DNA from: Pseudomonadota bacterium
GTDB lineage: Bacteria > Bdellovibrionota > Bdellovibrionia > Bdellovibrionales > SG-bin7
Reading direction: 5' to 3'
Assembly (NCBI GenBank): GCA_034439715.1
Contig: JAWXAY010000010.1
Span: forward strand, 1 to 64,000
DNA: 64,000 nt
In this document: piece by piece, positions 7,904-26,635 of the stretch
Layout: each line of letters begins with the position of its first letter
Position numbering within the stretch: the stretch's first letter is position 1
Notes under the pieces: generated by a model
Told to the model about the DNA's origin: nothing
What the model saw: the letters and a program-made list of their open reading frames with translations, nothing else
Databases searched by the model: none
Made by a program: the position numbers and the translations under genes

Positions 7904-8545
7904 CTAGTACAGCTGCCCCAGAATCAGCCTTGGATCGGGATAAATTCGTAAAGCCATTTGTAAATCTAATGTGGAAACTACGCCTGGCATATCGCAACAA
8001 TTTGGTTTGATGAGAGAAATTTGTACGTGAACATGCGGTGGCCATCCACCATTTTCTAATTTACTTCCAACATGTGCAATCACATCTCCTTTTTTAAAGG
8101 ACGCTCCTTTTTTCAGATCTTCAATCGAATGATGGCGTAGGTGTCCATAAAGCACCCAAAATCGTAATTTTTTAATCTGATGAGACGTGATCAGCGTTCC
8201 GCCGTAGTCACCCAAAGCAGAGTTTACTGTTTTGCAAAATATTTTTCCGTCTAAGAAGGCATAGACGGGAGTACCTTCCGGTGCACCTAAGTCAATCCCC
8301 ATATGGACGTCTCGTTTTTGTTGATTGCATCCTTTTTCTAAAAACAGGTCCAAATTGTACATGTTGGGTCTTTGCTCATTATATTTACCAATCCCAAATG
8401 GATTCAATGCTGCTCTATCTGAATTATTTCCGTTGGCAAAATCAAAAACTTCATACTGATCTGGTAAGATGATGACAGGGTGAAAATCATAACCGCCAAA
8501 CAATTTAATTAAATTCAAAGATTTGTTCCCCATGAAAGGCGCCAC
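7904..8545 (-). CDS. M23 family peptidase (LytM domain)
   Basis: HMGIDLGAPEGTPVYA ... GHL ... HVHVQI motifs. Confidence 0.7.
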   Translation of the reverse strand: MAPFMGNKSLNLIKLFGGYDFHPVIILPDQYEVFDFANGNNSDRAALNPFGIGKYNEQRPNMYNLDLFLEKGCNQQKRDVHMGIDLGAPEGTPVYAFLDGKIFCKTVNSALGDYGGTLITSHQIKKLRFWVLYGHLRHHSIEDLKKGASFKKGDVIAHVGSKLENGGWPPHVHVQISLIKPNCCDMPGVVSTLDLQMALRIYPDPRLILGQLY

Positions 8546-9806
8546 AAATTTTTGCAGGAAGTTTTTGTCCGATGAAGCAACTGTTTTTTGAAAGACTTGA
8601 AATGTCCTTCTCGGTAAAAATAGATGGCTCCGCTAGTAGATCGACTAGAACACCGTGAAATTTTGAGCCGAGTTCAAATTCATCAAGTCCATTTTTTAAA
8701 TTCAGGAAATTTGCGGGATTTTTTGAAAAAACCTGCACTAGTCTTTGGCTCGTTATTTTGCCATTCTTCCAAGCCTCAATAAGAACTTTTAAAGTGGTTT
8801 CTAAACCTAATGTTCCAAAAGCCGCATGCTCAAAAGAGCCTGTCTTTTTTGGAGGTTCGTGAGGCGCATGATCTGTCGCCACAAAATCAATGACCCCTTC
8901 TGTAAGCCCATTCCAGAGAGCAACTTGATCATTTTTAGAACGGATCGGTGGATTCATCTTGAAAGACGAATTTTCTCCGTCAATTGTTTCGGTATTGAAA
9001 AAAAGATGGTGTGGACTTACTTCAGCGGTAACACGTAGGCCTTCAGCTTTGGCGGTTTTTACGAGCTGGACGGTTTTAGCACACGATACATGTAGAACAT
9101 GATACCGAGCCCTAGGATACCGTCTTAACAATCGTAAATCGCGCTCGACCATTTGCCACTCGGGCTCCTCAGGGTAAAGCTTCACCCCAAGCTTTTGTTG
9201 CGCGGGCCCTGATGCAAGCACGCCACCATGGCCAAGGTACTCGGCGTGCTGCAGGAGAGGGATATTTAGATCTTGAAGTCTTGAAAAAGCTAAAGTCATA
9301 ACCTCATCTTCTAAGACACCGAGACCGTCATTGGTGAAGGCGACGACACCGGAACGAACCAAGGTTTCAAAATCAGTAAGCTCAGATGAATTTAAATTTT
9401 TAGTAATTGCCGCCGACCACAAAACCGAGACGCCATAGTTTTCTTCAAACTCTCGAACCTCATTTTTTCCTTGGTTGAGCACTTCGACGCAGTCAATTGT
9501 CGGCTGTGTATTTGGCATTGTTAACACTGCCGAGTAGCCGCCCTTTAGCGCAGCTAGCAAACCCGTTGCGGCAGTTTCCTTTTGCTGCTGGCCAGGAACT
9601 CGTAAATGAGCTTGCACATCAACACCCGAAGGAAGAAGTGCCTTGCCGCCAAGGTCGATGACCGTGCCCACATTCGCTATTTCAGACTTCATTTGTAAAA
9701 TGCGTCCGTCCTTGATCAGAAGATCCATCTTTTTTGGCTCATGATCGGACGACCACACGCTGGCATTTTTTAATACATAGAGGCAACAATTTTTTTTCTT
9801 CATCAA
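8505..9806 (-). CDS. Dihydroorotase-like amidohydrolase with altered metal-binding motif
   Basis: DHOase class I pattern with TDHAPH and VAFTNDG, but the first HxH motif reads DVQAHLRVPG (His to Gln); 4-nt overlap with sbtB-like gene. Confidence 0.6.
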   Translation of the reverse strand: MMKKKNCCLYVLKNASVWSSDHEPKKMDLLIKDGRILQMKSEIANVGTVIDLGGKALLPSGVDVQAHLRVPGQQQKETAATGLLAALKGGYSAVLTMPNTQPTIDCVEVLNQGKNEVREFEENYGVSVLWSAAITKNLNSSELTDFETLVRSGVVAFTNDGLGVLEDEVMTLAFSRLQDLNIPLLQHAEYLGHGGVLASGPAQQKLGVKLYPEEPEWQMVERDLRLLRRYPRARYHVLHVSCAKTVQLVKTAKAEGLRVTAEVSPHHLFFNTETIDGENSSFKMNPPIRSKNDQVALWNGLTEGVIDFVATDHAPHEPPKKTGSFEHAAFGTLGLETTLKVLIEAWKNGKITSQRLVQVFSKNPANFLNLKNGLDEFELGSKFHGVLVDLLAEPSIFTEKDISSLSKNSCFIGQKLPAKICGAFHGEQIFEFN

Positions 9807-10111
9807 ACTCTTTCAAATTTTTCAGGGCGTAAAATTGAAATATCAGATGAGTAAGTGATCAGAGAGTAATTTTCGAAAAACTTCTCTGCCAGCGCTTTCA
9901 TAATTTTTAAGGCAAGTTGCGGCTCTACGACGATTTCGATTTTTGATTTTAAATCAGGAATTTCGCCACTGCTTTTTTCTCCGTTGCCTTGACCCCTGAC
10001 TTCTGTGACGGTGAAGCCTGTGGCCCCGAGGTCTTGACTGATGGTCAAAATACTTGAGCTTAAAACGGGCTCGCAAATAATGGTGACAAGTTTAAAATTC
10101 ATGAGTTTCAT
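9803..10111 (-). CDS. sbtB: PII-like signal protein SbtB
   Basis: 102 aa; strong similarity pattern to cyanobacterial SbtB (KLVTIICE...GFTVTEVRGQG...YSLITY); immediately downstream of sbtA. Confidence 0.75.
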   Translation of the reverse strand: MKLMNFKLVTIICEPVLSSSILTISQDLGATGFTVTEVRGQGNGEKSSGEIPDLKSKIEIVVEPQLALKIMKALAEKFFENYSLITYSSDISILRPEKFERV

Positions 10112-10120
10112 AATCTCTCC

Positions 10121-11113
10121 TTATCCAGCAAGCCATTCGGCGAATTTAAAAAACAATGGAATTCCTACGACTAAATTAAATGGAAAAGTGACGGCTAAAC
10201 TCGCAGTTAGATAGTAAGTGGGATTAGCCTCAGGCAAGGTCATGCGAACCGCAGGTGGTGCTGCGATGTAAGACGCACTCGCTGCCATCGCTCCAAGCAC
10301 CGTGGCACCTCCGACAGAAAGACCAGACCAGTGCCCCAGAAAAACACCCAATGCACCATGGAGAATGGGTAACAATATCCCGAGGGGTATGAGGGGTAAA
10401 CCTACTTTTTTAAGATCAGAAAGTCTGGCTCCTGCGACAATTCCCATTTCTAAAAGAAACAATACGAGAGCGCCCTTGAATCCTGTTTCAAAAAATGGCT
10501 TTATCGGCTCGTAGGCATTTGCTCCCATGAGAAGACCTATCACCAAACCACCAACCAGCAAAATCATAGAGCGACCTGTTAGAATTTCATGAAAGATGGC
10601 AGACTTGGTTTTTTTATCGCCACTTGATACTAATGAATTATTTTTCGCTCGTTTCAGCGCGCCTATAGCTAGTGCGATATGAATGCCCGGACTTTCTAGC
10701 AGAGTTAACAGCGCCGGCATAAAACCCTCTGCCGTTTTCCCCATGTGTTCGATAAATTGATTTGCCGCAATGAATGTAACCGCGGAAACTGAACCGTAAT
10801 GTGCGGCCAGTGCAGCCGCATCGACCTGTCCAAATCGCCCCAATTTTCGCATGATTATATAGGCCGAAATTGGAGTAACGCATCCCAAAACGAGAGTTGC
10901 AAAAGCCGGCCAAGCAATAATTTGAAAAGTACTTTCAGACAGCTCAACTCCGCCTTTTAATCCAATCGCTAATAAAAGATAGATGGATAATGAAGAGTAG
11001 AGATCTTTTGGCAGACTTAGTTCACTCTTCATTAATTTCGTTACAACTCCAAGCACAAACGCTAGCACTATGGGTGATAATAAGTTTGTTCTTAAGATTT
11101 CGAATGCGGTCAA
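10121..11113 (-). CDS. sbtA: SbtA-family (DUF897) sodium/bicarbonate transporter-like permease
   Basis: 330 aa, about 10 TM; SPIVLAFVLG, IGLKGG and DAAALAAHYGSVSA motifs parallel cyanobacterial SbtA. Confidence 0.7.
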   Translation of the reverse strand: MTAFEILRTNLLSPIVLAFVLGVVTKLMKSELSLPKDLYSSLSIYLLLAIGLKGGVELSESTFQIIAWPAFATLVLGCVTPISAYIIMRKLGRFGQVDAAALAAHYGSVSAVTFIAANQFIEHMGKTAEGFMPALLTLLESPGIHIALAIGALKRAKNNSLVSSGDKKTKSAIFHEILTGRSMILLVGGLVIGLLMGANAYEPIKPFFETGFKGALVLFLLEMGIVAGARLSDLKKVGLPLIPLGILLPILHGALGVFLGHWSGLSVGGATVLGAMAASASYIAAPPAVRMTLPEANPTYYLTASLAVTFPFNLVVGIPLFFKFAEWLAG

Positions 11114-11130
11114 AGTTCAGTCCTTTATTT

Positions 11131-12006
11131 TCAAGGGTTACAAAATTCACATTCAGACGAGTCGAGTTCACGCTGACCATCAGGCCTTGGCCTCTCTTCT
11201 TTTGTTTTACACCGTGGACATGCGAGCAATACGGCTTTAGCAATTCGACTAGGGACTCCACAATCACCGCACGGAAGGCCAGGAATTCCTTCGACAACTG
11301 TAAACCCTGGAAACTCGCAAGTCGGACAAAGTGAGTTAAGACTTTCGATTAACTTTACTCCCGCTTTATGAATCGCGTTTCTTCGGGTAGCATTGTGGCA
11401 GGCCCGCAGATCGGTCATTAGTACAACCCGCGCGGTTTTTGAGGCGACAAAACAATCAAGCATTGCTTGGCCGACTGCTCGCTCTGTATGAAGCCCCTTA
11501 AAGAGCGGTGTTAACAAACCCTCGGGGTGCACGATCACCCCATGTTCGGGGAAATTAATTTCTTTTAAAAATGCTCGAAAATCATCTCGGGGTCCCAGAA
11601 TTTTTTCTGCGTGAATTGGATCTGTCGCCAAATATTCAGCATAAATTTCGCTCCCAGTTTCGCGGTCCCACAACAGAAGTGACTCAAGGTCTGTTTGCAT
11701 AAAACCAATCAGTGGATGCGGACCGAAACTGCCTTCGCTGGCAAGAATCAATTGAGCTTCAGAGTGTTGGTCCGCAGCCGCTTTTATTTTCTTTCTTAAA
11801 GTTTCCCGAACCGATCCCGTACGTTCGACTTCGCCCGAGAAGGTACCAAACTCATCGGTATCAATAAGCGTCGCAATACAGTTCACACCAAGTTCGGCCA
11901 ACAATGGTTTAAGAAGCGCTTCTTTGCCATGCTTTGTCGCAAAGTAAAATGTCTTGCCATGAAATGGATGTGGGGCGGCAACTGCCATAGCCTTAAGTAT
12001 CGCCAA
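11131..12006 (-). CDS. Hypothetical protein with C-terminal 4x CxxC zinc-ribbon cluster
   Basis: CPTC...CGDC...CPRC...CEFC in the last 60 aa; first gene of the sbtAB operon. Confidence 0.4.
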   Translation of the reverse strand: MAILKAMAVAAPHPFHGKTFYFATKHGKEALLKPLLAELGVNCIATLIDTDEFGTFSGEVERTGSVRETLRKKIKAAADQHSEAQLILASEGSFGPHPLIGFMQTDLESLLLWDRETGSEIYAEYLATDPIHAEKILGPRDDFRAFLKEINFPEHGVIVHPEGLLTPLFKGLHTERAVGQAMLDCFVASKTARVVLMTDLRACHNATRRNAIHKAGVKLIESLNSLCPTCEFPGFTVVEGIPGLPCGDCGVPSRIAKAVLLACPRCKTKEERPRPDGQRELDSSECEFCNP

Positions 12007-12940: not shown

Positions 12941-13351
12941 ATCTGTGATAGAGTAGTTTCTTAAGCCGCACATTTAGTCGATTGCACAAATGCCAGATAT
13001 TACATACGAGTAAAAATTAATTCGTGCGATTGAGGCAAACGTGCTTGCATCTGTCGGTCAATTCTCGACCTCCAGTGGATTGACTGAGGCACTTGTATAT
13101 CAAGGGAAAAAGAAAATTCTCGGAGCAGTCTTAGACTTGTCCACTGGACGTGTGAATTATCTTGAAATATAAAAACACGCTTCCCGAAACCAAAATCGAG
13201 CGTGGCGGCGTCATAATTTATTAGAATTGTGAATGCACGATGCGATGGAGTATTGTTCAACTGAACAGTCATGTCGACGTTAGTCCTGGCCCATATTTGA
13301 TTGTCTCAGGGGTGGGTATCGTAGATCGAAATTTGAACCGATATTTACCTC

Positions 13352-13657
13352 ATGTTAGATAATCCTAAGTTCAAAATGACATTCGTAAAAGTACTGAGAC
13401 CAGCCCCAACTGATTCACCGACTAGAGATCCGATCTGGAAGTTTGTTCACGTTACAAAAGTAAGAAAAAAAAACGATACTTATCGGTGCGCTTATTGTCG
13501 TGGAAGTTCAAAAGTAGTTTTGCATCTTAATGGTAATGTCGTCCCACATGTGGAACATTCTGCCAAGGCCGATGCTTTGGTCAATAACTGCCGCACTTTG
13601 GAAGAAGGCTTCAATGAGCTAGCATTTATTGAAACTCACAAAAGTTTATTAGAATAG
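13352..13657 (+). CDS. Hypothetical protein
   Basis: ORF only; CxxC pair; convergent with the S8 gene. Confidence 0.25.
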   Translation: MLDNPKFKMTFVKVLRPAPTDSPTRDPIWKFVHVTKVRKKNDTYRCAYCRGSSKVVLHLNGNVVPHVEHSAKADALVNNCRTLEEGFNELAFIETHKSLLE

Positions 13658-13722
13658 AGGAATGACCACTACCATGGAATAGCGGCCATTCTCTGGAACA
13701 AAGCAATAGCCTGTCATGCAAA

Positions 13723-16191
13723 TTATACTTCGATTGGTGTCGCGATCATGTTTTCAATGGATGCATAAATATCTGTATCTAATTCTGGCGAAGAGATCGT
13801 GACGATTAAGCTGTACCTTGCATCTTTATCAGTGTGGCCTTCGCGGTGTTTCTCCCTCCACCAACCAACGACAGGGAAAACAGCAATGTGCGCCTTTTTA
13901 GCGAGATCAGATGCTTTGCCTGTCCAAAAATCAGAATGAAGCGAACCCTTCGTGCGAATCTGAGGGCCGAGATACCATTCATCGGCGTCACCGGTAGAAG
14001 TAACGCTATCTCTGCCAGACTCTTCATTCCACCTTGCTCGGTTGATTCGCACTTTGAATTGGTCCTGAGATTCATCAGCTGTTTGCATTTCGAATCTCAA
14101 TCCGTGTGATTGATACCGAAACTTTCCGGTCCATCCTCGACGCGCGGGATAGGGTTCAATAAAATAAGATAAAGTTACTCTCATAGTAACGACGGTTTCA
14201 CCAAGTGCTTCTAAAGCATCTATTGGCCAGGGCAGCGCATGTAAATTCATTTCGTTCATAGAGTCGCCGTCAAAAGGCCGAAGGCTATCTTGAGCTATTA
14301 ATGTTAGATGGTTACTTGCACTGAAGAGCGCTCTTTCAAGGCTCGGAACTCCATAACCGCAGCAACGAAGTAAGGTCTCTTTCTGCATTCTTGTGAAGGT
14401 TGGATAACGTGTAAGCATCTGCTGCGTCCAGTATGCAGAATGTGCGATCATTCCGCGCACTGTTTCGGGCCAAAACTGCGGATATTTTTGTGCGATCCTG
14501 GCAGCAATATGAGAGGCCTCTGCCGTTGCCGCACTTGTATCGGCCATCCAAGTAAAAAATGATCCTCCGGTGCGGATTCGATCAGTCGAAAGTAACAACA
14601 TCGAGTCGGGACGAACAACTCGGCCCGAATCCGAATGTATTGCAGCATTACCGCCCTCGAATACGACATCAGGTTTGATTGGCCATTTTCCTCTTTCCCA
14701 GGTTAGCGAAGTGGAACTGCTTGGGCAAAGATCTCCAGCGGGAGCAAGCGAACTCCATCCTGCATAAGCGGGATCAGTGATCTCAATTTTTTCAGTAAAG
14801 GCTCCGACAGTTAGAGCGTTCCATGATTGGGCAGGATCGTGAATGCTCTCAACTTCATTCACTGCCGGGTAATCGTTGAATGTTGTCTCGTCGGTGTTAC
14901 CTGCAGAGATAATAAATAAATGTCTCTTATCTTCAATCGTCAGGCCCACGCAAATTTTATCGACGGCAGCAGACCAAGAAGAGGGTTTGCCTCTGTCTCT
15001 TCCATCGAGAGCAGTGACTGCCATCGAAAGGATTCGATCATTAAATGGATCGATTGACGTGACGTGCGCGACCGCTTCTTCCGTGAGATTTCCATAGAGC
15101 TGAGGATCATTCGCTCCGGGAGGCGGAGGCAACAGCTTTACGGATTCGAGCTGGCAAGGAACAGTTATTCTTGTCGTACTTAATAGTGCGGAGTTTAAAT
15201 CGCGGTACAATACGATTCCAGCCATTCCAGATCCGTGGCCATCATGATCGTCTACGCCCCACGCAGGCATGAGACTGATCTGTTTATTCGCTGGCAAATA
15301 AGATTGAATCAAAGGGTGAGTTCGACTGATGCCAGTATCGAGAATGCAGACTGTAGGTACATCCCCATTTTGAGGATCAGTCAGGCCAACAAGAGCATCA
15401 ATCCATTCACGCTGTTCTGGTGGATACATTGATAAGAACTCAGATACAGTTTCCTTTGCTCTTCTAAGTTCAGCTATCAAATCAAATGATTCGATAGATA
15501 TGGCGAGTTGAGCAGGCTCACAGTATGCCAAGATAACTTTTCGGTCTGGAAAATCGATTACTCCCGTACCGGTTAAGATCTGGCGGCGATCAGCAACCTG
15601 TTTAAACCGATCAACAACATCTTCGACATCTCCTCGTAACCAAACTTCCCACCAAATTTTTTCCTGATCGGCTGGAAACAGCTCAGGCATATCAGTCCAA
15701 AAAGATTGAAGGACCGCTAGTCGAATGCTCTCGATTCCATTAACCAAAGGTAAATTTTTAGGTTTTCCGCTTTTTAAATCTTCGTCTTTGTATTGCTCAA
15801 CCTTTTTAATAAAAACAGAAAGCTTTTCGTCAGGTACGAAAACTGTAGCGATTACTTGTGGCTTCGAATCGACATCAACTGTTTTTACTGAGACTAGCTC
15901 GATGTCTTTTGACGGCAAATCAAGGCTTTCAATGGCCAGATCGTGGCCAGGCTTACCTGAAAACTCCAAAAATATTCCTTTGGATTCCAGCTGCTCCTGC
16001 GCCGCCTTTTGCTTGAGCTCGGGAATATCTCGACCAATATTTTTTAGCTCTGATAATAATTTTCTAGCATGGGACTTTCTGGGCCGACTCGGAATCGATA
16101 GGCTCGAACCAAAGGAACTTGTTGACGTGTATTTTTCAGATACAGCACTACTATCGATTAAAAAATGTCTAAGATTTTTTCGAACCGGCAA
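13723..16191 (-). CDS. S8 family subtilase with long N-terminal extension (IetS-like)
   Basis: ILDTGI (Asp), HDGHGSGMAG (His), ADTSAATAEASHIAA (Ser) motifs; 822 aa; directly downstream of the AAA ATPase. Confidence 0.7.
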   Translation of the reverse strand: MPVRKNLRHFLIDSSAVSEKYTSTSSFGSSLSIPSRPRKSHARKLLSELKNIGRDIPELKQKAAQEQLESKGIFLEFSGKPGHDLAIESLDLPSKDIELVSVKTVDVDSKPQVIATVFVPDEKLSVFIKKVEQYKDEDLKSGKPKNLPLVNGIESIRLAVLQSFWTDMPELFPADQEKIWWEVWLRGDVEDVVDRFKQVADRRQILTGTGVIDFPDRKVILAYCEPAQLAISIESFDLIAELRRAKETVSEFLSMYPPEQREWIDALVGLTDPQNGDVPTVCILDTGISRTHPLIQSYLPANKQISLMPAWGVDDHDGHGSGMAGIVLYRDLNSALLSTTRITVPCQLESVKLLPPPPGANDPQLYGNLTEEAVAHVTSIDPFNDRILSMAVTALDGRDRGKPSSWSAAVDKICVGLTIEDKRHLFIISAGNTDETTFNDYPAVNEVESIHDPAQSWNALTVGAFTEKIEITDPAYAGWSSLAPAGDLCPSSSTSLTWERGKWPIKPDVVFEGGNAAIHSDSGRVVRPDSMLLLSTDRIRTGGSFFTWMADTSAATAEASHIAARIAQKYPQFWPETVRGMIAHSAYWTQQMLTRYPTFTRMQKETLLRCCGYGVPSLERALFSASNHLTLIAQDSLRPFDGDSMNEMNLHALPWPIDALEALGETVVTMRVTLSYFIEPYPARRGWTGKFRYQSHGLRFEMQTADESQDQFKVRINRARWNEESGRDSVTSTGDADEWYLGPQIRTKGSLHSDFWTGKASDLAKKAHIAVFPVVGWWREKHREGHTDKDARYSLIVTISSPELDTDIYASIENMIATPIEV

Positions 16192-16206
16192 TTAAACCCT
16201 CACCAT

Positions 16207-17190
16207 TCACTTTGACGAGAGGGTTCGTTCTTTTAGACAATTCAGAACCATTTCTGTAGTGATCTTATTGTTATCCGGACTGAGAATCTGAAGTTTTATC
16301 GAGTCTTCGCATGCTCTAGAAATTTCAGCGAAGCTAAGTCCTTTGCTCTCATTTACGATTTTTGTCATATCGAGAGATTTCACTCCAAGATTTGCAAATT
16401 TACTTTTAATCGTGAGTACAATCAAATCTTCAGTCGGGAGTCGATATTGGATGCAATCATCGAAACGTCGAAACAGGGCCTTGTCTAAAAGATCAGGATT
16501 ATTAGTGGCCGCGAGAATTATACTTTCGGAATTACTTTGCTCTAAGAATTGTAGAAATGAATTGAGTACTCGGCGAATTTCTCCAACGTCATTGGAATTT
16601 GTTCGATGAGAACCAATGGCATCAAACTCATCAAAGAAATAGACTCCGCGAACTTTATCAATGTTATCAAATATGAGTCGCAACTTTGCAGCTGTCTCAC
16701 CCATAAATTTTGTAATGAGGCCATCAAGCAAAATTGTATAGAGGGGTAAGTTAAGCTCTCCGGCTAACGCAAATGCAGTTTTTGTCTTTCCAGTTCCGGG
16801 TGGACCAAATAGGAGAACTTTTCTTCGAGGAGACAACCCATGATTGGTGATCTTTTCCTTTTGTTTTTGTTCAAGGATAATTCGATACAATCTTGCGTTT
16901 GTTTCTTCCGGAAAAATTAAAGAGGACAATCGTTCCTTAGGATAGGAAACCGAAAGTAAACCTGCCAGCTCACCTCTAGGTTGAGAGATATGGGCCACAG
17001 CGGGTTGTTTTGTCCTTCCAAAACCCTTTTCTTTTGCTTCTTCTATAAGTTGTCGGATTTCGTCTGCAAGTTTAGAATGTCCTTGCTTAGCGGCTTGCGC
17101 TGCGACCTGCATGGCGACAGAATAAAAGCGGCTGTCATCCCCTTCGGAATGGCTTTTGATCAAAGCTTTTAACTGATCGGAATTAGCCAT
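16207..17190 (-). CDS. AAA+ ATPase (IetA-like)
   Basis: Walker A GPPGTGKT, Walker B FFDEFD, sensor ATNNP and LFRRFD second region of homology; 327 aa. Confidence 0.75.
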   Translation of the reverse strand: MANSDQLKALIKSHSEGDDSRFYSVAMQVAAQAAKQGHSKLADEIRQLIEEAKEKGFGRTKQPAVAHISQPRGELAGLLSVSYPKERLSSLIFPEETNARLYRIILEQKQKEKITNHGLSPRRKVLLFGPPGTGKTKTAFALAGELNLPLYTILLDGLITKFMGETAAKLRLIFDNIDKVRGVYFFDEFDAIGSHRTNSNDVGEIRRVLNSFLQFLEQSNSESIILAATNNPDLLDKALFRRFDDCIQYRLPTEDLIVLTIKSKFANLGVKSLDMTKIVNESKGLSFAEISRACEDSIKLQILSPDNNKITTEMVLNCLKERTLSSK

Positions 17191-17234
17191 ATTTTATCCT
17201 TGACTGCCAGTGTTAGAATAGCGGTCGGATTAGA

Positions 17235-17753
17235 TCATTGTCGATATAATTCGGTCAATCCGTGCTGTTCCAAACTTTGGGCGGAAGCACTCCAGTTTTT
17301 AAGCACGTTAAACACCGTTTTCACATGCCACTTAGCCCCCTTCTTTCGACAGGGGACATTTAGGCGGTTCATTTCTTCGACTATCTGCCTGTAAGAGAGC
17401 CCTTCCTTACGAAAGGCCTTCAGTTGATTGATTGCCCTTAGCTCGGAAGGGTTGGAAGTAAGCTGCCCGGCTATCCGCCGAGTCCCAAATTTTTCCGGTT
17501 CCAAGATCAACCGATCTGGGGGTCTTAACGGAATCTGATAGTGCATCAAATACCGCCGAACCGTCTTTCTGGAGGAAAGAGTTTGACCGGCGATTTCATC
17601 CATTGACGCCCCTTCTTCGAGGTATTTCTGCCGGAGGAAACTCTCGTTTCTAAATGACTTTACGGTCGTGAACTGCAATACATTGGTCATTGGCAGCGGA
17701 GGAAACAATGGTTGCGTCCATCCGTCGAGACTGAGCCAATTTTTCTCGGTCAT
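17235..17753 (-). CDS. HTH plus recombinase-domain protein lacking a catalytic resolvase domain (serine-recombinase remnant or regulator)
   Basis: LSYRQIVEEMNRLNVPCRKKGAKWHVKTVFNVLKN resembles the Recombinase domain of large serine recombinases; HTH segment MDEIAGQTLSSRKTVRRYL; start taken at internal Met. Confidence 0.4.
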   Translation of the reverse strand: MTEKNWLSLDGWTQPLFPPLPMTNVLQFTTVKSFRNESFLRQKYLEEGASMDEIAGQTLSSRKTVRRYLMHYQIPLRPPDRLILEPEKFGTRRIAGQLTSNPSELRAINQLKAFRKEGLSYRQIVEEMNRLNVPCRKKGAKWHVKTVFNVLKNWSASAQSLEQHGLTELYRQ

Positions 17754-17948
17754 TATGATGCATTTGAAATAACGAGGGTTTTTGAAATTACCCACCTTTT
17801 TCAAAAGTAAACAAAAAGTCAGAAAATCAACCACCACCCACGACGTTTTGAATTCTCACAGGAATTTTTATATGATGGGATTCGCGTGTATAAGTGAGGG
17901 GTCGAGTGTCGTCGACCACCATAAAAATGATCGTCCAAAGAGTTATTC

Positions 17949-19425: not shown

Positions 19426-19722
19426 CTATGCCTTCTTGGCGACTCTCGGCACTAAGCTGATCGCAATATCGCAATCAACAATGCTTGCCGCTTTTGAAAG
19501 AGTTTGTAGAGATACACCCACGTGGTCATCAAATACACGATTTGTTGTCGTTGGACTGTGGAAAGCTTTGCGAAAAGCGTTTTTCTTCACCTTCTTGCGC
19601 CTGATCTGTTTTTCGAGTTGATTAACAAATGTGCGCTTGGCAGCCTTTGCCGCAACTTCAGTTTCAAGATTCTCTTCAGCCAAAAAATCGTCAAAAGACG
19701 AGCCCGTTAATTTGTTTTTCAT
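19426..19722 (-). CDS. HTH-type antitoxin (XRE-like) of a type II TA pair
   Basis: 98 aa; HTH VGVSLQTLSKAA; 4-nt overlap downstream of the toxin gene. Confidence 0.55.
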   Translation of the reverse strand: MKNKLTGSSFDDFLAEENLETEVAAKAAKRTFVNQLEKQIRRKKVKKNAFRKAFHSPTTTNRVFDDHVGVSLQTLSKAASIVDCDIAISLVPRVAKKA

Positions 19723-20168
19723 TTCTTTCTCCTTGTCGTCTTCGCGACGGTTTCAGCAGATTTTTGTTCATGAATCCATTCCTTCATTCGCTTCCACGCC
19801 AAATCGAGTTCTGACTTTGGAGTCTTCCTCGTGGTCTTACGAAAAAAGTGAACGAGGACCATGAGGTTGTCATAAACAAAAAATAAAGTTCTATACTCCA
19901 ACGTCTCCACTGTATGCCGAGCCTCGTAAACCGACTTTTCGTATTGACCTGAACTGGATCGCAAGCGGTCAACGTAAGGTCGATCTACTCGCCAATTTAA
20001 CTCCACAAAACGAATGTCTTCGCCCACAACCGTTTTGGTGGGCCGACCTAAGTCTCTCAAAATCTCCTTCACAGGCTCATGACCAGCTGGAGTTTTGAAA
20101 AAGACCGCGTTGATTTTCTTCTTGATATCTATATCGGCCACATTTCCAATGTACTTTATAGAGTACAT
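19719..20168 (-). CDS. RelE/ParE-superfamily toxin, phage Gp49/HigB-like (DUF891)
   Basis: LEYRTLFFVYDNLMVLVHFFRKTTRKTPKSELDLAWKRMKEW matches the Gp49-like killer-protein signature; true start may be internal. Confidence 0.6.
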   Translation of the reverse strand: MYSIKYIGNVADIDIKKKINAVFFKTPAGHEPVKEILRDLGRPTKTVVGEDIRFVELNWRVDRPYVDRLRSSSGQYEKSVYEARHTVETLEYRTLFFVYDNLMVLVHFFRKTTRKTPKSELDLAWKRMKEWIHEQKSAETVAKTTRRKK

Positions 20169-20322: not shown

Positions 20323-21300
20323 CTAACAGTTGGCCTGACACAATAGATCTGACTCAAATAATTTAAAGTGTTCATTTAATACTTCGACGTTATGGGATAA
20401 TTTGGACCTAAGAATTTTTATGAGATTGTGAAATGATTGCGGCAATTCTATCTGTACCGAATCTCTTTTAGTTTGCCCAATTTTTTCAAACAGTCTCAAT
20501 GATTGCTCGATTAAATTAATATGAGGCTGAGAAGCGTACCAAACCGGTTGAGCTAAATCATCCATAAGTACACCCACAAAATAGCGCAAAATTAAATCCA
20601 AATTCTTTGTAGAATCTCGATTCAAATGAGGATTGAAGAGCTTAGTTTGTATTTCTTCATACAGTTCCTGGTTCTTGGTAAAACCCTCTTTTTGGCCTCC
20701 CAAAAGATGGTCTGCCAAATCATGCGTTCCAAAGAAAGCGACCTGATGTTTTCTCAAAAGCTGCACTTGATCGAAAGCATAATTATTTTCTATTTCCCAC
20801 TTATTGGTTTTTAAATAATTTATAGAATGTTCTTGTGAGCTACAGAGAAAGGAACTCAATGCCCATTTGGAAACAATGACCAACTCCAATCCTCGTTGGG
20901 CATAACGACGGGCTACCTGATTTGGAAAAATAACAATCTGATCAAGCAAACCCTCCTCATTTATAGAAAGTGGATGGAGAATTAGGCTAAAATCTGGATG
21001 CTGAGGTTTAAATTCTAGGTGGTCTGGAATCCACAATCGAATTCCAATTTCTTGGCCGAGACTAATAATTTCAGATTTCCAAGGATTACCTGGAAAATCC
21101 TCCAATTTAATTCCCATGGTAGCACTCAGACGATCCCATTCCCTATTTCCCATTTCAAACTGAAGACCAAGACAAGTTAATAAAGATGCATATAGGGGTT
21201 CTTCAAGAAATGAAAAAACCTCCCCCTTCTCTTTTATTTTGGAAATGAGTTTATCTTTGAGATGGGGAGGTGTGGGAAAATTTTGCCAAATACGATTCAC
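20323..21300 (-). CDS. Hypothetical protein
   Basis: 325-aa ORF with good coding continuity; no confident family. Confidence 0.4.
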   Translation of the reverse strand: MNRIWQNFPTPPHLKDKLISKIKEKGEVFSFLEEPLYASLLTCLGLQFEMGNREWDRLSATMGIKLEDFPGNPWKSEIISLGQEIGIRLWIPDHLEFKPQHPDFSLILHPLSINEEGLLDQIVIFPNQVARRYAQRGLELVIVSKWALSSFLCSSQEHSINYLKTNKWEIENNYAFDQVQLLRKHQVAFFGTHDLADHLLGGQKEGFTKNQELYEEIQTKLFNPHLNRDSTKNLDLILRYFVGVLMDDLAQPVWYASQPHINLIEQSLRLFEKIGQTKRDSVQIELPQSFHNLIKILRSKLSHNVEVLNEHFKLFESDLLCQANC

Positions 21301-21304
21301 AAAC

Positions 21305-21619
21305 TTATTCTTCTAAAATTAAATCTTTCTTGAATGTATCAAGACAAAATTGGGCTTTTTCTTGATGACCAGCTTTATTGACGACCCCTTCCGGTGACAT
21401 ATGACCTTTAATGTAGGCTAAACATTTTTCAGAATCAGTTAAAAGATGACAGTAGGGATTGTATCTTCCCGCTTTTTCAGTTTGTTCAAAGGGCCCAATG
21501 GCACAGTTTCCAGCCAATTGATCAATGTCAGGTCCACGTGGAGGAAATTCTTCTGCCATCAAACCACTTGCTGTTAGGAGCGTTGCCACGGAAACTAGTA
21601 TCTTGTTTTTTGTTCTCAT
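21305..21619 (-). CDS. Small secreted Cys-containing protein
   Basis: Signal peptide; 104 aa; 4 Cys. Confidence 0.4.
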   Translation of the reverse strand: MRTKNKILVSVATLLTASGLMAEEFPPRGPDIDQLAGNCAIGPFEQTEKAGRYNPYCHLLTDSEKCLAYIKGHMSPEGVVNKAGHQEKAQFCLDTFKKDLILEE

Positions 21620-22615: not shown

Positions 22616-24361
22616 TTACATTTTCTCAGGTGTAGGAATGCCCAAAAGGTCCAAGCCATTTTTTAGCACTCGGCCCGCGGCGTAGGCTAAGGCGAGGCGT
22701 GTAGTTTTTAACTCATCGTTGGCCGCAGTCCCGATAGGGCAATCGTGATAAAACTGATTGAACTTTTTAGCTAAGTCATAAAGGTAGTTGCAAACAAGCG
22801 CCGGCTTATGATTTTCAGCGGCACTTAAAACTGTGGCATTAAAATGCATGAGGTACACACATAAATTGACTTCAGATTTTTCGGCGAGGAGAGACCAGTC
22901 GGGTTTTATTTTGGCGTCAAAGTTCAGTTTGCGACAGAGGCTTTCAATACGAGCGTAGGAGTACTGAATGAAAGGTCCTGAGTCTCCATCAATTTTTAGC
23001 CACTCCTTCATATCAAATATAATTTGCTTGTTGTTGTCCATCCGAAGCATTCCGTAAAAAATTGCACCCTTGGCCACTTGAGTGGCTACCTTATTAATTT
23101 CAGGCTCGGTCCACTCGTCCTTGTAACGTGAAAGGTATTGGTCATTTACCACGCGCTCCATTTCGTGGATCAAAGAAATGAGAGGCACAATATTACCTTT
23201 GCGTGAACTCATAGCACCATCAGGGAGTTCTACAAAATTATACTGCAGATGAAAGCAATCTTTAGCCTGCGGAAATCCGAGAAGTTCTAAAACTCTAAAT
23301 ACTTGTTTAAAATGTAGAGCCTGCCTCATATCGACGACATAAATACTTTTTTGAATTTTGAAGTCTTCAAATTTTCGGCGCGCCAATTCTAAATCTTTAG
23401 TAGCGTATAATCCTGTGCCATCAGACTTTAACAACAAACAAAATCCCAGATTCTCTTTGGTCAGATCTAAACCGACTGCACCCTCTGACTTTTGCAATTT
23501 ACCTTCTGCCAAAAACTTTTTAACAAGTTTTACCGAGTCTGCATCGACTTCAGATTCCCAATACCAAGAGTCAAACGTGACGTCGGCCCAAGCATAAACG
23601 CTTTTCATCAGATCAATAGACCATTCGCGAGTTTCTTTCCAAAGTTCGTAATACTCACCTTTTTTTGCCTCTAGCTGTTTTAAAATTAGAGTGAGCTGTT
23701 CTTTATTTTTGGGTCCGTTCGGCGTGTTTTCTTCGTCTTCAAGTGCAATATGACCTCTTGAATAGTGCTTTCCCAACCACTCGCCGCGGTTAGTGGTCGG
23801 TACGGATTCTTTATTGTGATACTTCATATACCAGAGGCATTTGGCTACGTGAGTTCCCATATCGCCTGGAAATGTCGAGGCAATAATATTATAGCCGGAG
23901 TATTTTAAAACTCTCACCAGAGAGTTACCCAAACAGAGGTTTCTCATGTGGCCGACATGTAATTCTTTGTGAGTGTTAGGTTGAGAGTACTCCACCATTG
24001 TTTTTGGCGCATTTTCAGTGAGCGCTGTTTTGAAATAGGAACCACTGAGTATGGGTGTAATTATTTTTTGACCTACGCCGGCAGTTTTGAGTTTAAAGTT
24101 GAGGTAAGGTCCGGCAGCCACTGCAGAATCGATGATCTCGTCTGGTTTTACTTTTTCTTGGAGAGTCTTAGAAATCTGCGGAGGCCCTTGACGTAACAGT
24201 TTTGCCAGTTGAAAACAACCAAACGCCAAATGGCCCATTTCAGGATTTGGCGGTTCAACGAGGTTTTCATACACTTGCTTTATAGTTGCCGAATTTTCGG
24301 GAAGTAACGGGTGTATTATTTCTGCAATATGAATTTTAACGGGATTATGCAGAAGCCTCAT
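22616..24361 (-). CDS. argS: Arginine--tRNA ligase
   Basis: HVGHMRN (HIGH) and MSSRKG (KMSK-like) motifs, ArgRS N-domain; 581 aa. Confidence 0.9.
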   Translation of the reverse strand: MRLLHNPVKIHIAEIIHPLLPENSATIKQVYENLVEPPNPEMGHLAFGCFQLAKLLRQGPPQISKTLQEKVKPDEIIDSAVAAGPYLNFKLKTAGVGQKIITPILSGSYFKTALTENAPKTMVEYSQPNTHKELHVGHMRNLCLGNSLVRVLKYSGYNIIASTFPGDMGTHVAKCLWYMKYHNKESVPTTNRGEWLGKHYSRGHIALEDEENTPNGPKNKEQLTLILKQLEAKKGEYYELWKETREWSIDLMKSVYAWADVTFDSWYWESEVDADSVKLVKKFLAEGKLQKSEGAVGLDLTKENLGFCLLLKSDGTGLYATKDLELARRKFEDFKIQKSIYVVDMRQALHFKQVFRVLELLGFPQAKDCFHLQYNFVELPDGAMSSRKGNIVPLISLIHEMERVVNDQYLSRYKDEWTEPEINKVATQVAKGAIFYGMLRMDNNKQIIFDMKEWLKIDGDSGPFIQYSYARIESLCRKLNFDAKIKPDWSLLAEKSEVNLCVYLMHFNATVLSAAENHKPALVCNYLYDLAKKFNQFYHDCPIGTAANDELKTTRLALAYAAGRVLKNGLDLLGIPTPEKM

Positions 24362-24861
24362 CGACCCTCAGGTTTACCAGGAGCTCGGGTGATCGGCGTA
24401 TTTAATCCAGGAGTAGGCGCATCCTCGCTTTCCGATTTTAGCCCAGAATGTTCACCAACAACTCGAATGGCGCTAGAAAGTTTTTCGTCGACAATAGAAT
24501 TTCGTCTTAAGACTTCGTTCATTTGAATCAAGCGCATAGTGACGGTTCTGGTAATTCCCATAAACCATTTGGGAACCTCTTTAAGCTGTTGATCGATCGC
24601 CGACTTTTCAATTTTAATCGTGGTAACCTTTGTCAGAGCAACAGCGTTGGCCGAATGGGGCATGGTAGCAAGCAATGAAAGCTCGCCAATATATTCACCT
24701 GAGTTTACGAGAGCTAGTGGTATTTTTCTGTTCTCATTATCCATTTTGAAAATCTCAACTTGACCCTCTTTAATGATGTACAAACAAGTTGCCGCCTGCT
24801 TCTCGGTTAATAAATAATCTCCTGGCTTAAATTTTACTATTGTGGATTTTGGGTCTGCCAT
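24358..24861 (-). CDS. Cyclic nucleotide-binding domain protein
   Basis: cNMP-binding beta-barrel pattern (GEYIGELSLL...A.A); overlaps argS start. Confidence 0.6.
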   Translation of the reverse strand: MADPKSTIVKFKPGDYLLTEKQAATCLYIIKEGQVEIFKMDNENRKIPLALVNSGEYIGELSLLATMPHSANAVALTKVTTIKIEKSAIDQQLKEVPKWFMGITRTVTMRLIQMNEVLRRNSIVDEKLSSAIRVVGEHSGLKSESEDAPTPGLNTPITRAPGKPEGR

Positions 24862-24870
24862 TTTTCACCT

Positions 24871-25623
24871 CTAAAAATATAGTTTTAAGCCAGCGAGAGT
24901 TCCCGCCGAACTTGTTTTTGTTAGTGTACCTGAAGCCGAGGTTAATTCCAAATCTTCGTTAAACCAAGTGCCTTGAATTCGTAGAATGCCAAAGTCTAGA
25001 AAGAGAGTGGCCTCAATATTTTTACCCAAAAGGTCGGTGGCTAGATCAGACCTACTCTTTAAGATCTGTTGGTACAGGCCGATAATTCCCAATTTCTTAG
25101 CTAAATAGAGGGTAACAGAAGCACCCGCCATATTATTTTTGAAGGTTTCAATTTCTGCGCCAGAACCATCGCGGCGATTTCGTATTCCATAGAACAGCGT
25201 GAGATTGGTGTTTTGAAGATAATTGCCAAAAATTCGGAAGTTAAACGAACCATCCCAGCCAGTTTGGTGGTTGGTGGCATCTATGTACTGCCCTTCAAAC
25301 CCAAATATAGTGCTATAGGCACCGAGCAAGCCCCTCGTTATCTTGAAGTTAGCATTGGTATCAGTGACGTCCTGAGTGATCGTTTGGTCAAAAGTGGCAG
25401 ACTCGGCACCGATATAAAACTCGTACTTAATATCTTTTGTGTGAGCCGCTAGCCACATATCTTGAGAACTCATCTTTTTCTTGGTATCGAACCAGTCGGC
25501 GATGGTCCAACGCTTCTTTTGTTTCTCTTCTTGTTTTTTTGCTATGTTTATAATGTATTCGCCCTCAATGGCATGTGCAGAAATTGCAAAAAACGAAAGG
25601 AGAGAAAAGAGTATTTTTATCAC
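24871..25623 (-). CDS. Outer-membrane beta-barrel protein (hypothetical)
   Basis: Signal peptide, alternating pattern, C-terminal LKLYF. Confidence 0.45.
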   Translation of the reverse strand: MIKILFSLLSFFAISAHAIEGEYIINIAKKQEEKQKKRWTIADWFDTKKKMSSQDMWLAAHTKDIKYEFYIGAESATFDQTITQDVTDTNANFKITRGLLGAYSTIFGFEGQYIDATNHQTGWDGSFNFRIFGNYLQNTNLTLFYGIRNRRDGSGAEIETFKNNMAGASVTLYLAKKLGIIGLYQQILKSRSDLATDLLGKNIEATLFLDFGILRIQGTWFNEDLELTSASGTLTKTSSAGTLAGLKLYF

Positions 25624-25734
25624 AGTCTTACATTTAACTTTTTATTCAGAATTTTGAAAAGCATTGATTTTAATGCGGCGTGGTCCCAAAAGCCGGTCTA
25701 AGGACCGGCAGTCAAAACAAAGCGTAAGTGTCAG

Positions 25735-26466
25735 TTACATTTTCATGATAACCGAGATCGCGCCGCCAAATGCGCCAAGTTCAGAATTTGGACAATTGGG
25801 GTGAAGCTCTTTGCCCTTAGCTGCACCATGACAGCTCAAACAATTAGAGCCATAGTACTCGGGTATGATGTAACGAGCTTGGTTTTTTTCGGCTTGAACT
25901 TCAAAGTAGCCTTTGTTTTTCTCCCAGCCTTTTGTGGCAATCATTTCGTTCATGATTTTTCTTTCCCAGTCGTCAGCTTTGTTCTTGGGATTAATAAGAC
26001 AGTCGTCGGTAACGGTCAAACGTACCTCGTATTTTCCGCTACTTGTTGCTTTAAGTTTTTGACCAATTTCACGAGCAAACCGAAACGGTAAAAGTTTGTT
26101 GGGGTAGTGTTTTGACGCCGCCCAAGTTTCTTTAAAACCGTCGGCAAATGCTTTTGTAAATACGGTGTCAATGGAGTCTTTTAGATTTTTTGTAGCCTCA
26201 TTTGTAATATCAATTTTGATGCCAGTGGCTTCTAAATACTTTCTATCAACGGCCTTTTGTATTCCAGCCATATCAAGTCCGGCATCTTTTGGGTTGGTCT
26301 GCATGCTTTTGATATTATCTGCTACCACTGCACGTGCTGAGCGAAAAATTTTTGTGAGCGTTTTGGCGGTTTCTTCGTCAGCTACACCAAAGGCTGGCGA
26401 AGCAAAGCCGACCAGTACTAAAGTCATTCCTATTTTGAGAAAGTATGAAGAATTTAATAAAATCAT
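25735..26466 (-). CDS. c-type haem (CxxCH) DUF3365/Tll0287-like sensor protein
   Basis: Signal peptide; single CLSCHG motif near C-terminus; start may be at internal Met (26427). Confidence 0.5.
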   Translation of the reverse strand: MILLNSSYFLKIGMTLVLVGFASPAFGVADEETAKTLTKIFRSARAVVADNIKSMQTNPKDAGLDMAGIQKAVDRKYLEATGIKIDITNEATKNLKDSIDTVFTKAFADGFKETWAASKHYPNKLLPFRFAREIGQKLKATSSGKYEVRLTVTDDCLINPKNKADDWERKIMNEMIATKGWEKNKGYFEVQAEKNQARYIIPEYYGSNCLSCHGAAKGKELHPNCPNSELGAFGGAISVIMKM

Positions 26467-26635
26467 AAAAGAGCTCCCGGGTTACAAACAGAGTAGAAAA
26501 AAGAATGAATATGCTATTGATTTTGAAAATCTGATTCCGATACTGCAAGTGTAAAAGGAGAATAATGACTACCTTCGCCGTGTTGCGTTGGGACTAAAGG
26601 TGTAAATCGGATATGAAATTTTGGGAGCGCGCTAA

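Follow-up and report, generated by a model that had tools for sequence, protein, structure and literature searches.

An IetAS-type ATPase and protease gene pair as probable exchangeable cargo beside a recombinase-related border gene in a Bdellovibrio-like genome

The stretch of DNA considered here is the first 64,000 nucleotides of contig JAWXAY010000010.1 (assembly GCA_034439715.1), part of a Bdellovibrio-like metagenome-assembled genome (MAG); we shall call it the window. Contigs 99.99-100% identical to it were found in assembly GCA_964459655.1 (one) and in public sequencing runs (two); with the relatives of its ArgS, they are the basis for regarding the genome as Pseudobdellovibrionaceae-like. 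On its minus strand the window carries a gene for an AAA+ ATPase followed by a gene for a large S8 peptidase (subtilase), and, upstream of both, a gene for a small protein with two helix-turn-helix (HTH) motifs (Table 1). The original prediction, made from the letters of the sequence, had recognized in the ATPase and the peptidase the anti-phage pair IetA/IetS, and this identification is borne out by the profile models of PADLOC. The ATPase matches the IetA model PDLC02196 over aa 2-321 of 327 (1.2e-75), with three other IetA models matching as well; the peptidase matches the IetS model PDLC02198 over aa 272-818 (4.9e-36), and seven IetS models match it, its N-terminus staying unmatched. Similarity over the full length to the pair of the Ti plasmid pTiC58 confirms the assignment. 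Judged from its sequence, the module is intact and belongs to the Ti-plasmid (Y4kL/Y4kK) type of IetAS. The open reading frames (ORFs) were also found as first described, with the same coordinates and lengths and with 44 bp between the stop codon of the HTH gene and the start of ietA; the gap between ietA and ietS measures 15 bp, not 16.

IetAS is already known, catalogued and widespread, and the window copy is a standard member of it. A gene pair for an ATPase and an S8 protease was reportedly described as the anti-phage system IetAS/IteAS by Gao et al. in 2020, and the window pair has the same make-up as that system in PADLOC and NCBIfam (NF042959/NF042956). It resembles the pair of pTiC58 (NC_003065.3, 97873-101373) in gene order, in size (327 and 822 aa, against 328 and 836 aa) and in the succession of a Y4kK_N domain, an S8 domain and a C-terminal domain in IetS. 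Identity reaches 54% for IetA (aa 1-322) and 39% for IetS (aa 5-820), and the Ti pair matches the PADLOC models in the same pattern, the N-terminus of its IetS being likewise unmatched. The settings differ: the Ti pair resides on a conjugative plasmid and is flanked by DUF6088 and LysR genes, whereas that of the window is chromosomal, in a Bdellovibrio-like MAG, between an HTH gene of large serine recombinase (LSR) type and an AZC_3924 gene. A variant known as ietHAS includes an SNF2 helicase gene, which the window pair does not have (PMC13069673). By its description, the chromosomal AAA-ATPase and S8 operon TA132/133 of mycoplasmas is a further relative in kind: its proteins differ in size (353 and 757 aa), and it lies in regions with signatures of horizontal transfer (PMC8562856).

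The family is large. IetS has more than 3,898 homologs; among the 120 homologs listed nearly all are about 820 aa long, all 120 are annotated with PF00082 and 114 also with PF27160 (Y4kK_N). Plasmids that carry homologs number 480, and 331 of these are conjugative. When we looked at seven loci of IetS homologs, which fall into five distinct arrangements, the AAA and S8 genes stayed together throughout (48-72% identity for IetS, 64-82% for IetA) while the flanks varied, from a Type ISP restriction enzyme with an integrase to a giant WD40 protein with a SACS/NOV_C protein, or ABC transporters. On contigs L042-L044, which code for a 57%-identical IetS homolog (P0005), a 294-aa gene with a faint DUF4379 match overlaps the 3' end of ietAS by 4 nt; a Type ISP restriction enzyme lies on one side, and on the other an HTH_3 gene, followed by two genes without annotation, an Endonuclease_NS gene and an integrase. 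In the P0005 subclade the system may thus have an additional component, the 294-aa gene.

IetA has the plan of a classical-clade AAA+ protein, an N-terminal helical region of about 100 aa followed by a single AAA module (Pfam AAA, 2.3e-29). Its Walker A (GPPGTGKT, aa 129-136), Walker B (YFFDEFD, aa 184-190), sensor 1 (AATNN, aa 227-231) and arginine-finger (RRFD, aa 241-244) motifs are intact, as had been noticed at the outset, and together with pore loop 1 (KFMG, aa 161-164) they all align in register with p97/VCP in a sequence search of the Protein Data Bank (PDB). The closest relatives there are p97/VCP D2 sequences (best 2e-48). IetA thus shares its D2-like sequence and its pore loop with unfoldases of the p97/Cdc48 type, from which it differs by having a single AAA module.

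In IetS, the catalytic residues D285, H319 and S553 and the oxyanion-hole residue N432 are invariant in an alignment with 40 homologs (44-72% identity), so that the full triad of the original prediction stands and is free of inactivating substitutions; M1 and P2 are conserved in at least 90% of the same proteins. The N-terminal extension, about 277 aa by the Pfam bounds of the S8 domain, agrees with the 270 aa first proposed, and the C-terminal one is shorter than thought, about 208 instead of 250 aa. The N-terminal extension had been taken for a region of unknown function; it is instead the recognized domain of the family, Y4kK_N (PF27160). This label comes from the precomputed Pfam annotation of an identical protein (P0001), while our local Pfam scan returned only PF00082, apparently because that copy of Pfam lacks the newer model. 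No signal peptide was found in IetS. A PDB sequence search gave no match, hence the protein has no solved relative by this search, and an exact look-up of the protein matched no record.

Modelled alone (predicted local distance difference test, pLDDT, 86.3; predicted template modelling score, pTM, 0.78), the N-domain of IetS shows a long helix (aa 38-65) and then alpha/beta units at aa 72-136 and 153-244. An invariant stretch, AELRRAK (aa 240-246), closes the second unit and is followed by a linker modelled at low confidence. Both fold methods agree in placing two tandem beta-alpha-beta-beta-alpha-beta domains directly N-terminal of the catalytic domain. Part of the modelled Y4kK_N shows a possible resemblance to propeptides of the I9 type at the level of the fold, which would liken IetS to the pro-subtilases that retain their prodomain (Tk-SP, PCSK9, CspB). 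It departs from them in being cytoplasmic and in its two tandem ferredoxin-like domains with a long helix, and Foldseek gives just as good a likeness to ACT domains. The modelled tandem domains may form an inhibitory propeptide or a ligand-sensing ACT-like module.

The gene upstream of ietA leads to a different kind of protein. Initially described as having an HTH and the 'Recombinase' domain of serine recombinases without their catalytic domain, it indeed has no match to the Resolvase catalytic domain (PF00239) in Pfam; its Recombinase match is itself marginal (21.0 bits, for a cut-off of 21.1, over 37 aa only) and gains support at the level of the family. The homologs P0133, P0164 and P0225 reach 24.9-26.7 bits for Recombinase, and four proteins of 671-737 aa (P0178, P0196, P0209 and P0235), which Pfam identifies as LSRs (Resolvase and Recombinase domains, in some cases also a Zn ribbon), carry the whole HTH module at their C-terminal end, positions 2-153 of the HTH profile aligning to residues ~512-730. 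Weak Pfam matches to Sigma-70 region 4 and HTH_23 were also seen, PHROG matches point to an integrase region (1.2e-5) and to an HTH of invertase/HNH type, and PADLOC has no match. That the ORF is a real gene follows from substitutions between contexts, which are mostly synonymous in its frame. Against 1.84 billion representatives its profile retrieved 1,897 relatives, 403 of them at E<=1e-10, mostly stand-alone proteins of 150-200 aa. On contigs L050-52, moreover, a serine-recombinase ORF of 565+ aa extends 26 nt into the beginning of the HTH gene, out of frame with it; set against the fused proteins found elsewhere, the overlap could reflect a split gene or a programmed frameshift. As far as sequences can tell, the HTH ORF encodes on its own the module with which some large serine recombinases terminate. 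The initial alternative of a mobile-element scar or a co-opted DNA-binding regulator was the right pair of options; the protein may be either a scar or a co-opted DNA-binding protein.

A few observations on this HTH family are worth recording. The overlaps with the serine-recombinase ORF lie on three independent metagenome contigs (L050 934-959, L051 1676-1701, L052 800-825). Proteins of 400-820 aa (P0140, P0145, P0151, P0152, P0156, P0159 and others) are made up of the first HTH of the module repeated in tandem, with 5-10 copies each, and Pfam sees them only as generic HTH arrays. A scan of metagenomes with the HTH alignment yielded only 2 loci, and one of viral contigs none. Finally, in L047 (5016-5150) and L057 (2781-2918) an in-frame TAA precedes by two codons the conserved block that encodes the N-terminal part of the HTH protein. 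Gene callers start at Met51 in both, and L047 has no ATG before it; the 45 codons upstream of Met51 are conserved, with mostly synonymous changes, and the explanation may lie in the start codon actually used (TTG?) or in the past of this segment.

What makes the HTH gene important for the understanding of the locus is that its homologs (51-76% amino acid identity) border differing sets of genes on other contigs. In L057 the cargo consists of PDC-M11A/B (PADLOC, 6.6e-135 and 9.5e-30) with an HTH_3 gene; in L047-49, of a DUF6119 gene and a resolvase-like gene with the same HTH_3 gene; in L050, of an ATPase of OLD/AriA/GajA type with a small resolvase; in L058, of a PAS sensor kinase and a P-loop protein with a second HTH paralog. 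Window and L057 share only two blocks of DNA, the left and right blocks of Table 1, at 90% and 91% identity respectively, and the left block is shared with otherwise unrelated contigs at 79-90%. The AZC_3924 protein of the right block belongs to a rare family, for which a search of 5.8 billion clusters yielded just two close homologs, and is 94% identical in L057, where it stands beside the PDC-M11 cargo. The 32-bp hairpin between it and ietS is conserved in L057, and in L047 it is found at the far edge of the cargo (9272-9303), there in the absence of the 101-aa gene. It occurs once in the window, and the idea that it is a dispersed repeat was rejected for this reason. On the other side, the HTH-ietA-ietS trio recurs on L055, a contig from SRR34294544, at 99.8% identity with a different left flank, the two sequences diverging exactly at position 17743. 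L055, L057 and L047 further share, immediately before the HTH start, a hairpin of which the window has no copy. The HTH gene is thus the proximal border of a cargo slot rather than a component of IetAS, and the hairpin at the end of ietS marks the distal edge.

Pieces of a backbone are also passed between these contigs: the HTH_3 genes of L047 and L057 are 84% identical, a gene of 201/202 aa is shared by L047 and L050 (67%), and so is a second one, of 201/181 aa (45%). In L061, a more distant relative, the HTH gene adjoins homologs of the window genes at 7904-8545, 8505-9806 and 11131-12006, in inverted orientation, with neither IetAS nor AZC_3924 nor a LysR gene in between. What these comparisons between contigs show is that IetAS is exchangeable cargo beside a recombination-prone border. 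The locus does not look like core synteny. Among 39 genomes of the Genome Taxonomy Database (GTDB) compared with ArgS as an anchor, the nearest ArgS was only 70% identical and no neighbour was shared, including the gene that overlaps argS, a distance too great to tell core from accessory genes.

Table 1. Genes, domains and sequence features of the IetAS locus (positions in the window)
Feature	Position	Strand	Description	Source
ietA	16207-17190	-	327 aa, ATG start	
ietS	13723-16191	-	822 aa, TTG start	
Y4kK_N domain of IetS	15367-16191		aa 1-275	
S8 catalytic domain of IetS	14350-15360		aa 278-614	Pfam
Beta-rich C-terminal domain of IetS	13726-14349		aa 615-822	
Two-HTH gene	17235-17753	-	172 aa from ATG at 17753; 200 aa from GTG at 17837	
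AZC_3924 (PF27389) gene	13352-13657	+	101 aa, convergent with ietS, flank of the slot	
Hairpin	13660-13691	-	14-bp stem, terminator-like, between the convergent ietS and 101-aa gene	Terminator scan
Left conserved DNA block	17476-17743		5' half of the HTH gene	blastn and alignment
Right conserved DNA block	13275-13692		AZC_3924 gene with the 77 bp that precede it, plus the hairpin	blastn and boundary alignment
Weak sigma-70-like promoter match	17215-17244	-	end of the HTH gene, 9/12 consensus	

A weak match to a sigma-70 promoter at the end of the HTH gene could drive ietAS independently. We retain it as a tentative candidate, since such matches are not above the expectation from shuffled sequences.

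How would such a pair work? In other members of the family IetS is a toxin and IetA its antitoxin, protease activity is needed for defence, and an ietA mutant could not be constructed; the mechanism of IetAS is still unknown (PMC13069673). In Bacillus a homolog works through abortive infection, with the SPbeta gene yosG as the trigger (bioRxiv 10.1101/2022.08.27.505566), and in the AAA/S8 pair of mycoplasmas, a functional toxin-antitoxin (TA) system, cells do not survive the loss of the ATPase (PMC8562856). By homology to members that have been tested, IetS of the window would be a cytoplasmic subtilase, toxic if unrestrained, which IetA keeps harmless; a cue from the phage would release the protease and the infected cell would stop growing. 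Such wiring could also let the pair serve as an addiction module of the DNA on which it lies. The models invite a more detailed scenario. IetS might be a cytoplasmic zymogen comparable to a pro-subtilase, in which a helix, two ferredoxin-like domains, the catalytic domain and the beta-rich C-domain follow one another, and which, being devoid of a signal peptide, would probably be latched by its own N-domain. IetA, because of its likeness to p97 and its pore loop of the aromatic-hydrophobic-Gly kind, is probably a hexameric unfoldase or remodeller, which would engage IetS or its latch in an ATP-dependent manner. It would hold or reset the latch at the expense of ATP, and a phage product that disturbs IetA would free the protease. 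Beyond the roles of toxin and antitoxin, these are steps that we infer.

We consider it likely that the pair is an intact IetAS system of the abortive infection (Abi) type, with a protease toxin and an ATPase antitoxin, present here as accessory cargo in a swappable slot. A number of observations weigh against this. The anti-phage activity would be carried over from other members of the family, none of them a member of this clade in a Bdellovibrio-like host. The equivalog models IteA/IteS of NCBIfam (NF042959/NF042956) score far below their cut-offs (210.7 for 510 bits, and 58.5 for 900 bits), with only the S8 core of IetS (aa 271-639) aligning to IteS, which places the window pair in a different subclade and not among the IteAS equivalogs. 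As for the latch, Foldseek ranks tandem ACT domains, not propeptides, at the top for the N-domain (probability up to 0.98, but low TM scores of 0.2-0.35). With respect to the status of cargo, the cassette region gives no atypical signal in GC content, a search around 12.9-18 kb for terminal repeats, whether inverted or direct, and for target duplications gave nothing above chance, and tblastn found no remnant of a serine recombinase across the 64-kb window. Nor is the slot reserved for defence, as the sensor kinase in L058 demonstrates.

Among other explanations, the most serious is that the pair would mainly be an addiction module, stabilising the island or region by post-segregational killing as on pTiC58, and not a defence against phages here. 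This is a possibility to which we give distinctly less weight. The founding pair is on record as a TA system for plasmid stability (Yamamoto et al., 2009, as cited in PMC13069673 and PMC8562856), homologs are common on conjugative plasmids, and the window pair sits in a mosaic, recombinase-associated unit. Yet relatives do confer protection of the Abi type, the other cargos of the slot are mostly of the defence type (PDC-M11, OLD/AriA-like), and addiction and defence are roles that do not exclude each other. It is improbable, by contrast, that the HTH protein serves ietAS as its own dedicated regulator of transcription, within a system of three genes. Its gene lies on the same strand, separated by the short gap given above, and L055 has the identical trio with another left context; but none of the seven homolog loci has an HTH homolog beside IetAS, which led us to reject the HTH gene as a partner of the pair, its homologs adjoin unrelated cargo, often in convergent orientation, and its family is tied to serine recombinases. 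Least likely is a housekeeping ATP-dependent protease for quality control, or a protease involved in predation. An unfoldase-like AAA+ ATPase paired with a peptidase might evoke the former, and predatory bacteria do encode many S8 proteases. The relatives, however, are spread over many phyla, on plasmids and near restriction-modification genes and integrases, and have a toxin phenotype; IetS has no signal peptide, and the pair is missing from the 'empty' arrangement of L061. Abi-type defence carried as accessory cargo thus keeps our preference.

A more adventurous reading concerns the whole unit. The loci resemble LSR islands and defence hotspots: their border genes are conserved, their backbone is a mosaic of modules, their defence cargos alternate, and the border HTH module occurs fused to LSRs or directly after them; the window differs from such islands in that it lacks a recombinase, att-like repeats or evidence of excision. 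It is conceivable, and we propose it as speculation, that ~13275-17743 belongs to an undescribed family of small, serine-recombinase-associated, now non-autonomous islands of Pseudobdellovibrionaceae, possibly with a propeptide- or ACT-like latch reset by a p97-like IetA. Such islands would be made up of an HTH gene derived from LSRs, a cargo, the hairpin and AZC_3924, and would exchange IetAS, PDC-M11, the OLD/AriA-like ATPase and DUF6119 between conserved ends.

As a system, IetAS of the window adds little: it is a textbook copy with thousands of homologs. The added value is in the context of the cargo slot and in structural clues to the mechanism. The tandem N-domain, of pro-subtilase or ACT likeness, and the p97-like ATPase with its pore loop are testable leads, and a latch reset by IetA, if true, would provide a testable mechanism for a defence system of unknown action. 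The locus is also a small, clean example of the exchange of defence cargo between serine-recombinase-linked borders, in a little-studied predatory lineage (Bdellovibrionota), where such borders could anchor the mining of new defence genes.

Other features of the window may be mentioned in brief. No Rfam family was matched over its length. Two genes away from the cassette, on the minus strand (19426-20168), a gene for a Gp49/HigB-like toxin (149 aa, PF05973, 1.6e-11) shares 4 nt with a 98-aa gene devoid of a family match, and the two are probably a toxin-antitoxin pair. Between it and a LysR gene lie two co-directional orphan genes (20323-21619, minus strand) of 325 and 104 aa, with no match in Pfam or PADLOC; the smaller has a weak match to a PHROG of unknown function (7e-05). 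The cumulative GC skew has its minimum at ~23000-26600, where the orientation of genes flips from mostly minus to mostly plus; there is no cluster of DnaA boxes nearby, so that an origin at this place is not supported. Finally, the minus strand at 9803-12006 codes for a DUF6671 protein, then for Sbt_1, an SbtA-like bicarbonate transporter, then for a P-II-like protein, as shown by Pfam labels taken from the identical contig L054, and one would not expect this SbtA/SbtB-like pair in a Bdellovibrio-like organism.

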